From contig JAWBZR010000009.1 in the NCBI GenBank assembly GCA_044343545.1, forward strand, positions 1 to 26,333: a stretch of DNA of 26,333 nt. Direction: 5' to 3'. A program made the translations under genes and the position numbers. Numbering within the stretch: position 1 is the first letter of the stretch; every line of letters starts with the position of its first letter. Positions 7,754-10,979 of the stretch are shown here, in pieces. Origin of the DNA: Candidatus Aenigmatarchaeota archaeon. Lineage in GTDB: Archaea > Aenigmatarchaeota > Aenigmatarchaeia > CG10238-14. Under the pieces are notes generated by a model. The model did no database searches, had not been told where the DNA came from, and saw only the letters and a list, made by a program, of their open reading frames with translations.

Positions 7754-7789
7754 ACCATCACAGGTTACTGGCTTTGGCAATTCAGGCCT
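7754..7789 (-). other. 3' arm of the pre-23S processing stem with canonical BHB
   Basis: RNA AGGCCUGAAU-UGCC-AAA-GCCAGUAACCUGUGAUGGU pairs with 10944-10979. Confidence 0.93.
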
Positions 7790-7941
7790 CTCGGGCGATT
7801 AGTAGCGGTAGGCTGAACATCTCGGGCGCACCCTTGATGCTTACACCTCCGCCCTATCAACCCCATCGTCTATGGGAGCCCTCGTCACATAACCGCTTGT
7901 TGCCAAGCAGCTATGTGAATTGCCGTCTCTTATTTGGGGAT

Positions 7942-7974
<33 letters not shown>

Positions 7975-8093
7975 ATTACGGCGTAGCTACTCGGCGATGC
8001 ATGAACAACCGATACACCAGAGGCCGCGGCCGGGCGTTCCTTTCGTACTCGCCCGACCTTCCCCTCAGACGGCAAACACCACCAATAGATACC

Positions 8094-8127
<34 letters not shown>

Positions 8128-8254
8128 AACGTCCCCTTTTAACCAGTGGACACCTGTACCCTTGGCTGCTACTGCACAGCCAGGTGAGGGGGAGCCGACA
8201 GCGACGGAGCAACACGCTTCGTCGATATGGACTCTCGGAAGCTACGACCCCATT

Positions 8255-8282
8255 TTAGGGGAGAGTATCGAAGCTACTCTCT
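8255..8282 (-). other. 28-nt BHB mini-intron B2 after U2449
   Basis: A-GAGAGUA-GCUUCGA-UACUCUC-CCCU-AA; CCCU pairs with exon GGGG; removal together with B1 restores GGGGAU|AAUGGGGUC. Confidence 0.8.
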
Positions 8283-8388
8283 TTAGGGTGCTGGATCTGC
8301 GATGCTAAAAGGTTTTTTCTCAAAAGCTAAATTCCTCTGCAGTTTGGTGGGGTGGTATCAATCGGGTTAGATCTTACACAGATCCATT
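8283..8388 (-). other. 106-nt BHB/BHL intron B1 after U2449
   Basis: 10-bp terminal stem UGGAUCUGUG/CGCAGAUCCA; ends in CCCU-AA|A like B2; no ORF. Confidence 0.8.
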
Positions 8389-8397
8389 ATCCCCGAG

Positions 8398-8430
8398 TTC
8401 GCCGTATGAGAGCAACCAGCTCATCATACT
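8398..8430 (-). other. 33-nt hairpin intron A after C2440
   Basis: Interrupts AAAAGCUAC|CUCGGGGAU; GUAUGA/UCAUAC stem; AC|A and AA|C junctions fit relaxed BHB geometry. Confidence 0.85.
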
Positions 8431-9725
8431 GTAGCTTTTCTGATACCACCGGCACCCATTGAGGGCAACCGATGTATCGCTAACCCACGCTTTCGCGGCT
8501 GGATTCCTTGTTGGCCAGAATCCAGTCAGGCCAGCTTTTGCGTTTGCACTCTACTCCCGATTTCCGACCGGGATGAGCTGACCTTTGGGCACCCTTGATC
8601 TATTGTCAAGGGTGTACCGCCCCAGCCGAGCTGTCCATCAAGCGGTGTCCCGCTGTCGCGGTTAGCATTACAATTGAGAAAGGGTGGTGTTCCAACGGCC
8701 TCTCAGTTGGACCCGGAAGCCCAACCTAATAGCGAGTCCCACCTACACTCTGCATTCTCAATCGTAATGCAACGCCAGACTACAGCAAAGCTCTACGGGG
8801 TCTTCGCTTCCCATTGGTGGTCTCTGGCCTATTCACCAGAATGGCAGGTTCACTAGGTTCCGGGTTGGGACAGCGAGGAAGTCGTTAAGCCATTCAAGCG
8901 GGCCGTCAATTAAACGGCAAGGGATTACGCTACTTTACGACGGTCAGAGTTACCGCCGCCGTTTACCGGGGCTTAGCCCGATTGGACTCGGGTTTCACAC
9001 ACCGGCACTGGGCAGGCATCAGGGACCATACACAACATTTCTGTCTAGCGGTCCCCTATGTTTTTGTTAAACAGTCGCTTCCTCCTTGTCACTGCGACCT
9101 ACACTCCCTGTGAGGAGTATAGGCACCCCTTCTACCGAAGATACGGGGCGAGATTGCCGATTTCCCTAACCCGGAGTAGCCTAGCACGTCTTCGCCTTCT
9201 CAGCGAGGGCACCTGTGGCGGTTCTCGGTACGAGTGCAAGGAATCCTTTCAAGGACCATTTTCACGGCCTCAAGGAATCGATCAAACTTGGCTTAAGCCA
9301 AGCTCATCCCATTTTCACCTGGTTCTCCTCATAACGAGACTCCCCAGGCTTGGATGGTTGACTTGCGTTGACCTATCCCCAAGGGTCTGGTCCTTGACTT
9401 GCGTCGCCGCACGTATCCTTGCAGTATCCGAATATTAACGGATTTCCCTTTCCCCAAGCTATGTTAACGCTTGCGGTTAGGATCGACTAACTGCCAGCTG
9501 ATCGACATTGCTGGCAAAACCTTGCCCTTTAGACGGCTGAGGTTCTCACTCAGCTATGCTGCTACTAGTGTCAGGATTTTCATTCCCGGACGATCCACAC
9601 GATCTTACGACCGTGCTTCTGCTCATCCGGGACGCCTCCCTACCACCTCTTTCGAGGTCCAAGGTCTCGGTAGCTGGCTTAGTGCCTTCCATTTTCAGAG
9701 CCCAAACCCTCGGTGGGTGAGCTGT

Positions 9726-9809
9726 TTTGCGGTGATGAAATTCATCAATCAATGGCTTAATCTTCACGCAATTCAGGTGACCGTCGTAATTTCATCGAAC
9801 TTCATCACT
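9726..9809 (-). other. 84-nt BHB intron C after A1095 (H44, GTPase-associated centre)
   Basis: UGCG-UA|A-GUGAUGAAG...UUUCAUCAC-CGCA-AA|A; removal restores GAGUGCGUAACAGCUC. Confidence 0.92.
9745..9798 (-). ncRNA. intron-encoded box C/D guide sRNA (predicted Cm1920, Um1971)
   Basis: C UCGAUGA 9798-9792, D' CUGA 9776-9773, C' GUGAAGA 9767-9761, D UUGA 9748-9745; 12-nt and 10-nt perfect antisense to 8935-8946 and 8885-8894. Confidence 0.85.
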
Positions 9810-10943
9810 TACGCACTCTTTAAAGGATGGCTGCTTCTAAGCCCACCTCCCCACTGTCTAAGGGTTTGGACATCTTTCGTCGTTTAGCCAGCATTTTGGC
9901 ACCTTAACCTTGGTCTGGCCTGTTTTCCTCTCGGATACCGAGCTTACCCCGATATCCTCACTATAGCCATCTACGACGACAGAGGATTCGGAGTTTGACA
10001 GGATAGCTGAGCCTTTCGGCCCTTGACTATCCAATCAGTAGCTCTACCCCCCTGTCTGTCTCCGGCTATGCTGTACTGAGGTACATTTCGGGAGGAACCC
10101 GCTATTGCCGGACTCGATTGGCTTTTCACCCCTAACCCCAGGTCACCCGAGTGGTTGGTTCCCAACACCGGTAGCAGACCTCCATCTGGCTTTCGCCAGA
10201 CTTTGTCTTGCCCAGGGTTTGATCGTCCGGCTTCGGGTCTTATCCAAGTGATTTCGGGCACTATTCGTACCCCGCCCCACGCTATCGCTAGCTACGGGCT
10301 GGTCGCTTTCGCTACGCCTTTCGGCTCACCACTTGGATAAACTCCCTGACCCATTCTTCGAAACGGACGGTGCAACCCTGCTTACGCTTAGGAGCCGCAC
10401 CTGACTATACCTACTTGGCTTCGGGCTCTTTTCACCGGCCGTTAGGCCTACTTTTCAGCTTTCTCTCATGATACTTGTTCGCTATCGGACTAGAGTTATA
10501 TTTAGGGTTGGATGTCAATGACACCCATCTTCCCGATCCAAATTCAAGGACCGGTACTCTGGATACTTGGCATCACCTTTCTTGCCTTCCTCTACGTGGC
10601 TTTAACACTCTATGGCGTGGCATTTCAGCCAACTTCGAGTCGGCAAGCGAAGGCGGACCCAAGTCCAAAACTCCACATCCGCCTTAACTTTTCGCTAAGG
10701 CGTTCGGTTTGCCCTTTGCCGCTTTCACTCGCCGTTACTCACGGCATCTCGTTTGATTTCTTTTCCTGCGGGTACTAAGATGTTTCAATTCCCCGCGTGG
10801 CCCTTCCCTGCCGGGAATGCAAAGGGGATTTCCCATTCGGAGACCTTGGGTTCAAAGGCTGCGTGCGCCTACCCCAAGCTTTTCGCAGCTTACCGCGTCC
10901 TTCATCGGTACTCTAGCCAAGCCGTCCACCAAGTAGGGTGAAT

Positions 10944-10979
10944 AGGCCTGAATTATTGCCGCCAGTAACCTGTGACGGT
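10944..10979 (-). other. 5' arm of the pre-23S processing stem with canonical BHB
   Basis: RNA ACCGUCACAGGUUACUGGC-GGCA-AUA-AUUCAGGCCU gives 19 bp / 3-nt bulge / 4 bp / 3-nt bulge / 10 bp with 7754-7789. Confidence 0.93.

Follow-up and report, generated by a model that had tools for sequence, protein, structure and literature searches.

To our knowledge, archaeal BHB introns are treated as self-contained elements, each with one motif and one excision. The 23S intron of Desulfurococcus mobilis with I-DmoI is an example of a LAGLIDADG-encoding BHB intron. Stepwise removal of introns is known from twintrons, including the group II and group III twintrons of Euglena plastids and the group I twin-ribozyme introns, and from the recursive splicing of long spliceosomal introns. 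For pre-tRNAs, Tocchini-Valentini and colleagues (PNAS, 2009) reportedly described precursors in which several BHB motifs are processed in order. Passages of two papers on archaeal rRNA record both HEG-bearing and mini BHB introns (PMC4496867, PMC6125680), and the relevant part of a pre-tRNA study likewise describes precursors whose BHB motifs are processed in a defined order (Soma et al., 2013; PMC3728597). Position L2449 of the LSU is reportedly a group I intron site in myxomycete rDNA (PMC3511172 and others). Among openly accessible full texts, none was found that describes tandem or nested BHB introns in rRNA.

The window analysed here is a stretch of 26,333 nucleotides from a Candidatus Aenigmatarchaeota archaeon. 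It is contig C22 of a 651-kb genome (22 contigs, approximately 90% complete) of a tiny hot-spring archaeon, and the runs with DNA of this genome, X1 and X2, are labelled as hot-spring metagenome. The window carries the only 23S rRNA gene of the whole genome, in which two neighbouring insertions are separated by a micro-exon:

7779-10954, minus strand: 23S rRNA gene, the intron host (RF02540, 2512 bits, model positions 1-2987).
8398-8430, minus strand: intron A, a 33-nt hairpin BHB mini-intron, without counterpart in 27 of the 29 relatives' loci.
8389-8397, minus strand: micro-exon CUCGGGGAU, 9 nt, contiguous as GCUAC-CUCGGGGAU-AAUGG in intronless relatives.

The second insertion is 134 nt long and occupies 8388-8255 on the minus strand. 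It has no counterpart in three genomes of the same genus (G001, G002 and G003), which read uninterrupted as GCUAC CUCGGGGAUAAUGGG, that is, GCUAC-CUCGGGGAU-AAUGGG. The gene is colinear with that of G002 save for a single 176-nt block, which consists of intron A (33 nt, 8430-8398), the 9-nt exon (8397-8389) and the 134-nt insert (8388-8255). Local cmscan aligned model position 2545 to base 8254, and A8254 is therefore the first base of the 3' exon. The insertion site is presumably U2449/A2450 in E. coli numbering, as assigned from the conserved motif. Deletion of the two parts of the insert, B1 and B2, gives GGGGAUAAUGGGG, the same sequence as in G001, G002 and G003; the conserved sequence is restored exactly, as is expected of BHB introns and as the initial annotation had predicted. 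The exons are intact, and the exon segment 8099-8254 is 100% identical to that in G002.

Two side observations concern the mature rRNA. The sequence GAUAAUGG is present at 8250-8254 (minus strand) and in all relatives read, and the Rfam archaeal consensus is GAUAACaG, so two bases beside the catalytic A differ lineage-wide. In contigs from both DNA and RNA runs, position 7973/7974 is joined to 8087/8094, skipping approximately 113-120 nt. The contigs skipping 7974-8087 stem from other organisms, and G002 is colinear with the window over this segment; it is thus a variable 3' segment of the 23S rRNA and not an intron here.

The insert had been described as two tandem introns at one site, with the heptamer CCCUAAA occurring twice. 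A repeat search recovered both copies (8254-8260 and 8282-8288, 28 nt apart), together with the B1 closing helix (8292-8299 with 8379-8386) and the B2 stem (8261-8267 with 8275-8281). The tandem architecture, with B1 of 106 nt and B2 of 28 nt, is also present in diverged relatives, giving four versions of the composite (the window, L042, G013 and G020). The heptamer as such is not enriched in the window (3 observed, 5.4 expected). The parts of the insert and the exon strands that bear on it are as follows, with cut sites as predicted:

8431-8437, minus strand: 5' exon strand AAGCUAC (repeat I5; in the duplex with B2 in all four versions).
8283-8388, minus strand: B1, 106 nt, ORF-less, with ends that align with the ORF-bearing L042 and G013 versions.
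8377-8386, minus strand: 5' strand of the B1 closing helix, UGGAUCUGUG (repeat I3; 10 bp in the geometry script).
8292-8301, minus strand: 3' strand of the B1 closing helix, CGCAGAUCCA (geometry script and repeat search).
8289-8291, minus strand: GCA, a non-canonical spacer that sets the inner CCCU apart from the B1 helix (a 1-nt spacer in the other versions).
8288-8285 and 8284-8282, minus strand: inner CCCU and bulge AAA, with the predicted first-step 3' cut between 8283 and 8282.
8255-8282, minus strand: B2, a 28-nt hairpin mini-intron (repeat I6), laid out as GAGAGUA (8281-8275), loop (8274-8268) and UACUCUC (8267-8261), then CCCU-AA.
8271-8281, minus strand: dual-use strand GAG-A-GUAGCUU (RNAduplex; repeat I5).
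8260-8257 and 8256-8254, minus strand: outer CCCU and bulge AAA, with the predicted final 3' cut between 8255 and 8254.

The GGGG that can pair with both CCCU copies sits in the micro-exon between the two introns. Within this micro-exon, CUC (8397-8395) is an outer-helix strand and GGGG (8394-8391) is the central-helix strand for both copies; the predicted 5' cut lies after U8389. The statement that each CCCU follows its own terminal stem needs a correction: in the window, the inner copy is not directly adjacent to its stem, as three bases (GCA, 8291-8289) intervene.

The same region was requested from 60 relatives, and 29 relatives' loci were returned and read. An intron at exactly GGGG-AU/A (the slash marks the splice site) is present in six of these 29 loci, two composite and four single. 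The composites are those of G020 and G013 (874 + 29 nt). The single introns measure 124 nt (G011), 129 nt (G017), 32 nt (G042) and 54 nt (G055), that of G042 being an unrelated mini-intron at the very same site as the composite. All four single introns combine a central helix of 4 bp with the 3-nt bulge AUA, which a helix of 7-13 bp follows without a spacer, and their 3' bulge lacks an exon helix, as does that of B2.

Within rRNA, wider scans returned the composite only. The B2 pattern matched three of 370 genomes of the class, all composite, and seven metagenome stretches, namely five identical G020-type stretches, a new composite of 805 + 27 nt (L042) and L037, which is a chance match outside rRNA. 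A scan for the 16-mer at the exon/B1 junction in the genome contigs of the species-genome collection, which missed both G013 and the window's own genome, returned 113 stretches, one of them in rRNA (L063, a G020-type composite). Relatives carrying B2 alone, a possibility raised by the initial annotation, did not appear among the 370 class genomes and the metagenomes in the B2 pattern scan, and no B1-only allele appeared in the species-genome collection in the 16-mer scan; both negatives count against two-stage removal. The composite of B1 and B2 moves and is inherited as one unit.

Insertions elsewhere in the gene were also seen. G001 (locus L006) carries an insert of approximately 646 nt further 3' in its 23S gene, opposite window position ~8119/8120 (blast break at LSU 2835/2836). 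Many order-level relatives (L012, L013, L015, L018 and others) have inserts a few bases downstream of the site studied here, after GGGCCCGUG / GGGCUCGUG, and at other positions. Domain V of the 23S rRNA is an intron hot spot in the order of the window's organism.

The longer versions bear on the origin of B1. In L042, B1 contains an intact ORF of 246 aa (575-1315) with a LAGLIDADG_3 domain (PF14528, E 1.4e-7), and this ORF extends through the inner CCCC-AGA into the B2 loop. In G013 (locus L007), B1 encodes two LAGLIDADG-like motifs in a frame split by one frameshift as read, and the frame ends at a UAG overlapping the inner bulge. No LAGLIDADG ORF is present within the 106 nt of B1 in the window. 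However short, this B1 aligns at both ends with the 805-nt (L042) and 874-nt (G013) versions, which argues that it is what remains of a LAGLIDADG homing intron after loss of the ORF. The insert of the window thus reads as a decayed, ORF-less homing intron joined to the hairpin mini-intron B2. A group I intron was considered and rejected: no group I model matched, B1 is too short and its ends are of BHB type. In the insert as a whole, no Rfam family matched at the gathering score, nor at E ≤ 1 over 8245-8440. The element CUAACCCG and the CCACC-rich run that follows it are invariant in all four B1 versions (8355-8368, minus strand, in the window). The same element is present in an ORF-remnant intron of G029 (locus L015) at another 23S site, after GGGCCCGUG, and in the window it could pair with exon CGGG. 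It looks like the shared core of one intron family.

The geometry of the two sites was examined with a script anchored on exon GGGG and run on all four versions. In the AT-rich versions with an ORF, a strict BHB scan of whole precursors produced chance candidates in numbers from dozens to approximately 1,100 and is therefore useless unless anchored in this way. In the unspliced RNA, no helix adjoins the pairing of GGGG with the outer CCCU in any of the four versions (at most 3 bp in the window), and the insert taken as a whole lacks a BHB; as had been noted, no single terminal stem closes it. Pairing of GGGG with the inner CCCY is accompanied by a helix of 8-13 bp that closes B1, with a loop rather than a clean bulge on the 5' side. 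This loop is 4x3 in the window, 4x1 in L042, 3x1 in G020, and in G013 either 3x1 or, in a shifted register, a clean bulge. The 1-3 extra bases opposite the bulge are non-canonical and count against two-stage removal.

Removal of B1 in silico changes the outer site. The pairing of GGGG with the outer CCCU then acquires a 3-nt bulge, no spacer and a helix of 6-7 bp in all four versions, following the same rule as the four single introns. The intermediate has a canonical 5' half, and its 3' bulge lacks an exon helix. In each of the four versions, the canonical outer motif is absent from the precursor and present in the intermediate, which is the pattern looked for in a twintron, and the proposal that removal of B1 regenerates a new substrate is supported to this extent.

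A second pairing was found on the 3' side of the inner site. In all four versions, exon AAGCUAC-CUC-GGGG is complementary to CCCY-[3 nt]-GAG-[A]-GUAGCUU, and RNAduplex gives a duplex of 4 + 3 + 5-7 bp with a bulge of exactly 3 nt. The duplex energies are -17.1 kcal/mol in the window (reached by 1 of 500 tail shuffles), -18.8 kcal/mol in L042 (8 of 500), -15.4 kcal/mol in G013 (11 of 500) and -14.5 kcal/mol in G020 (3 of 500), although the four versions share descent, so that neither the conservation counts nor the shuffle tests are independent. The B2 loops diverge across versions with GC(U/A)U retained. Through the 5' strand and loop of B2, the inner site is thus predicted to acquire a canonical 3' half that includes a long helix between exon and intron, and this complementarity to the exon in four of four versions is new evidence for the inner site as a putative splice site.

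At the inner site, three versions have the tetranucleotide CCCU and the fourth has CCCC, the U-to-C change turning a G.U pair into G-C. The spacer (GCA/A/U/A), the middle base of the bulge (A/G/U/A) and the upstream intron sequence vary, giving bulges AAA, AGA or AUA. One pair of the B1 helix is altered on both sides between versions (U.G, C-G or A-U). The B2 stem is invariant and so offers no covariation, which counts against two-stage removal, as does the overlap of the inner motif with the end of the reading frame in the ORF-bearing versions, where a coding constraint could add to its conservation. Three other complementarities of B1, namely GAUACCACC with upstream exon GGUGGUAUC, UAGCUUUU with exon AAAAGCUA, and UACCACCCCA with the 3' exon, are specific to the window and were discarded because they are not conserved in all versions.

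Both a splicing endonuclease and an RtcB ligase, the enzymes expected of a host of BHB introns, are encoded in the genome. RtcB was identified by PF01139 (E 2.8e-162). EndA (PF02778 and PF01974) is a protein of 177 aa encoded in the region of 60068-60346 of contig C1 (G000; 1273-1806 of L032); it has one N and one C domain and can be aligned over its full length with the alpha4 enzyme of M. jannaschii. No further PF01974 match, such as a second (beta) subunit would give, was present in the genome at E ≤ 10, which counts against two-stage removal. The enzyme is therefore not the three-unit EndA (epsilon2, ARMAN-type, approximately 390 aa); the initial annotation spoke of a DPANN-type EndA, and the sole match is a single-unit protein. 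The stretch from the catalytic Tyr to the catalytic His includes a Lys-rich insert, GVKLKRGPKEA. This insert is shared with N. equitans NEQ205 and the ARMAN-2 enzyme, and the M. jannaschii and M. kandleri enzymes are without it. A loop common to Nanoarchaea and ARMAN-2, in DPANN alpha4-type EndA, is linked with relaxed substrates in the relevant passage of Kaneta (2018; PMC5829648), and the insert seen here may correspond to that loop.

From the sequences, their conservation and complementarities and the presence of EndA and RtcB, we infer every cleavage, the ligated intermediate and the order of excision. The insert would be a twin BHB intron cut by EndA and sealed by RtcB in two stages, both of which would use the exon GGGG and the 5' cut after U8389. 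At stage 1, AAGCUAC/CUC/GGGG would pair with CCCU-[AAA]-GAG-[A]-GUAGCUU, that is, with the inner CCCU and the 5' half of B2. With the 10-bp closing helix of B1 on the other side, the fold would run helix, loop, 4-bp helix, 3-nt bulge, helix. Cuts between 8389 and 8388 and between 8283 and 8282 would free B1 (106 nt), and the exon would be ligated to A8282. At stage 2, the 5' strand of B2, now adjacent to the exon, would fold onto its own 3' strand (7 bp), and GGGG would re-pair with the outer CCCU. The resulting GGGG-AU/A-stem...stem-CCCU-AA/A would have the geometry of the relatives' single introns, and its cleavage would free B2 (28 nt) and leave the product GGGGAU-AAUGGGG. Two-stage removal, at the inner and then at the outer CCCU, is the best-supported mechanism and is, on balance, probable. 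The two steps may be obligatory, as originally proposed.

Excision of the insert in a single step was considered as an alternative. EndA would cut between 8389 and 8388 and between 8255 and 8254 together, releasing one 134-nt intron; GGGG would pair with the outer CCCU, the B2 hairpin would stack below, the B1 domain would leave from the 5' bulge in a three-way junction, and the inner CCCUAAA would be a relic of the composite's origin. With respect to the cut phosphate and the first two bases of the bulge, this fold would match an ordinary BHB, but it has no canonical bulge, the 5' bulge being broken by 106 nt and the 3' bulge lacking an exon helix. Stage 1 as proposed above has a canonical 3' half and stage 2 a canonical 5' half, whereas single-step excision has neither. 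The host EndA could help here, given that enzymes with its type of Lys-rich insert are described as accepting relaxed motifs in the part of PMC5829648 that treats them, and the occurrence of the composite always as one unit, with neither a B1-only nor a B2-only allele in the scans above, agrees with removal in one piece. The versions are also related, so that shared descent, or coding at the ORF end, could account for part of the conservation of the inner motif. However, a single step leaves unexplained why a GGGG-complement lies 0-3 nt past the B1 helix and 3 nt before GAG, and why B2 can pair with the exon through its 5' strand and loop.

Shuffling and folding bear on the same question. Shuffles of the 134-nt insert seldom reproduced its arrangement (1,423 of 200,000), defined as an inner complement to GGGG that upon removal leaves behind a 3-nt bulge and, directly against the outer CCCU, a stem of at least 6 bp; all four diverged versions have it. 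Pair probabilities were calculated in the local sequence context only. In the G020 precursor, GGGG pairs with the inner site with a probability of 0.55 at 37 °C and 0.44 at 75 °C and with the outer site with a probability of ~0; in its intermediate, the probability for the outer site is 0.5 at 37 °C. The near-zero pairing with the outer site in precursors speaks against single-step excision. In the window precursor, pairing with the inner site has a probability of ~0 at 37 °C and, once intron A is taken out, of only 0.16 at 75 °C, which counts against two-stage removal; this precursor favours a rival local fold that joins UCGGG of the exon to CCCGA of the intron and encloses a GGAUCU/AGAUCU hairpin. 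In the window intermediate, the probability for the outer site is 0.07 at 37 °C and 0.3 at 75 °C. Taken together, we regard single-step excision as unlikely.

A further possibility is three cuts with one ligation. After cuts between 8389 and 8388 and between 8283 and 8282, the nicked complex would refold with GGGG paired to the outer CCCU in trans and the B2 hairpin formed, a cut between 8255 and 8254 would follow, and RtcB would join the exons once, so that no ligated intermediate would arise. The same structural evidence that supports two-stage removal supports this path, and since the first cut already makes the 5' exon end, a second cut there is not chemically required. Formation of the canonical bulge AU/A, however, needs the exon covalently joined to A8282, and the 5' exon would be held by only 4 bp. 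We rate this path as somewhat less plausible still than excision in one step; on present evidence, nothing separates it from two-stage removal.

An artefact or a non-spliced insert (a chimera of alleles, a dead rRNA gene, a retained insert, or removal without religation giving a fragmented 23S rRNA) is very improbable, given that a DNA contig from run X1, possibly the source sample, matches the window over 8107-8503 with 0 differences, that the same B1/B2 junction recurs in G020, five identical metagenome contigs, L063, G013 and L042, that the gene is the only 23S gene of a 90%-complete genome with intact exons, that RtcB is present, and that a ribosome is unlikely to tolerate 134 extra bases next to its peptidyl-transferase centre. 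The X1 contig and the shared junction likewise contradict the assembly chimera of two alleles that the initial annotation had allowed for. Besides DNA run X1, RNA runs X3, X10 and X17 were compared with the window, all as assembled contigs, a form unable to show an intermediate. The RNA contigs end exactly at 8254 and 8431 and leave 8255-8430 uncovered. As evidence of splicing, these ends were ruled out: the contigs carry the differences of intronless G001 at 8144, 8156, 8209 and 8466, and the X3 contig resembles G007, so they derive from intronless relatives and are not informative on splicing here.

The neighbouring intron A may take part in the same pathway. Its layout is AGCU-AC/A-GUAUGAUGAGC...GCUCUCAUAC-GGCG-AA/C, and it is also present in G013, G029 and L042, where the stem sequences differ and the pairing is kept. 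Its central helix, AGCU with GGCG, has one A.G mismatch; G029 has GGCU, giving the full 4 bp. Intron A lies 9 nt upstream of the 134-nt insert, opposite the single bulged A of the exon-B2 helix, and the AGCU inside exon AAGCUAC (8431-8437) doubles as a central-helix strand of intron A. Its place opposite the bulged A and its use of the exon AGCU suggest that it is excised first, and intron A, which interrupts the exon strand of the stage-1 helix, is probably removed before B1. A three-stage cascade from A to B1 to B2 beside the peptidyl-transferase centre can be put forward tentatively. Each excision would build the next substrate; the 5' strand of B2 would act as an exon-binding guide that completes the BHB of B1 and would then become half of a hairpin; and the phosphodiester after U2449 would be cut and resealed twice. 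As the same phosphodiester would be cut and resealed twice, an imprecise first 3' cut would be corrected by the second round. We consider this full scheme possible but doubtful. The exact coincidence of the junctions of both introns would also fit intron gain at the RNA level, in which an excised intron of foreign origin was ligated into a BHB splice site that stood open.

If two-stage removal holds, the ligation product of one excision would be the only substrate for the next, in an rRNA and at the catalytic core of the ribosome. If confirmed, it would represent a protein-spliced counterpart of twintrons and recursive splicing, and EndA and RtcB would act repeatedly during 50S assembly. The homing intron and the mini-intron would depend on each other, B2 giving B1 its outer helix and the removal of B1 making the bulge of B2.

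Compared with known systems, the locus resembles the LAGLIDADG BHB introns of archaeal 23S rRNA in its putatively enzyme-spliced introns at a conserved 23S site, as far as such introns are treated in the passages of PMC4496867 and PMC6125680. The two-domain ORF in L042 and G013, the patchy distribution and the ORF-less decay forms are further likenesses. Unlike them, the homing intron of the window directly adjoins, head to tail and at one and the same nucleotide, a hairpin mini-intron, with two alternative partner strands for a single exon tetranucleotide and a non-canonical 5' loop. B2 (28 nt) and intron A (33 nt) resemble the archaeal rRNA hairpin BHB mini-introns covered in part of Jay and Inskeep (2015; PMC4496867), whereas B2 was never found alone and has an additional complementarity to the exon in its 5' strand and loop. 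The group I introns at L2449 of myxomycetes (PMC3511172 and others) reportedly occupy the same rRNA position, which marks it as an intron hot spot; in contrast, the insert here is without an Rfam match and B1 is too short and has BHB-type ends. Pre-tRNAs with multiple BHB motifs also present several EndA substrates per precursor in a set order of removal, as the pertinent part of PMC3728597 describes, but here the second motif is absent until the first intron is out, the host is an rRNA, and the same 5' junction would be cut twice. Twintrons and recursive splicing share with this locus an intron in or against another intron, stepwise removal and a splice site regenerated by the first step. They differ from it in chemistry, since a protein endonuclease and the RtcB ligase would here take the place of the ribozyme or the spliceosome.
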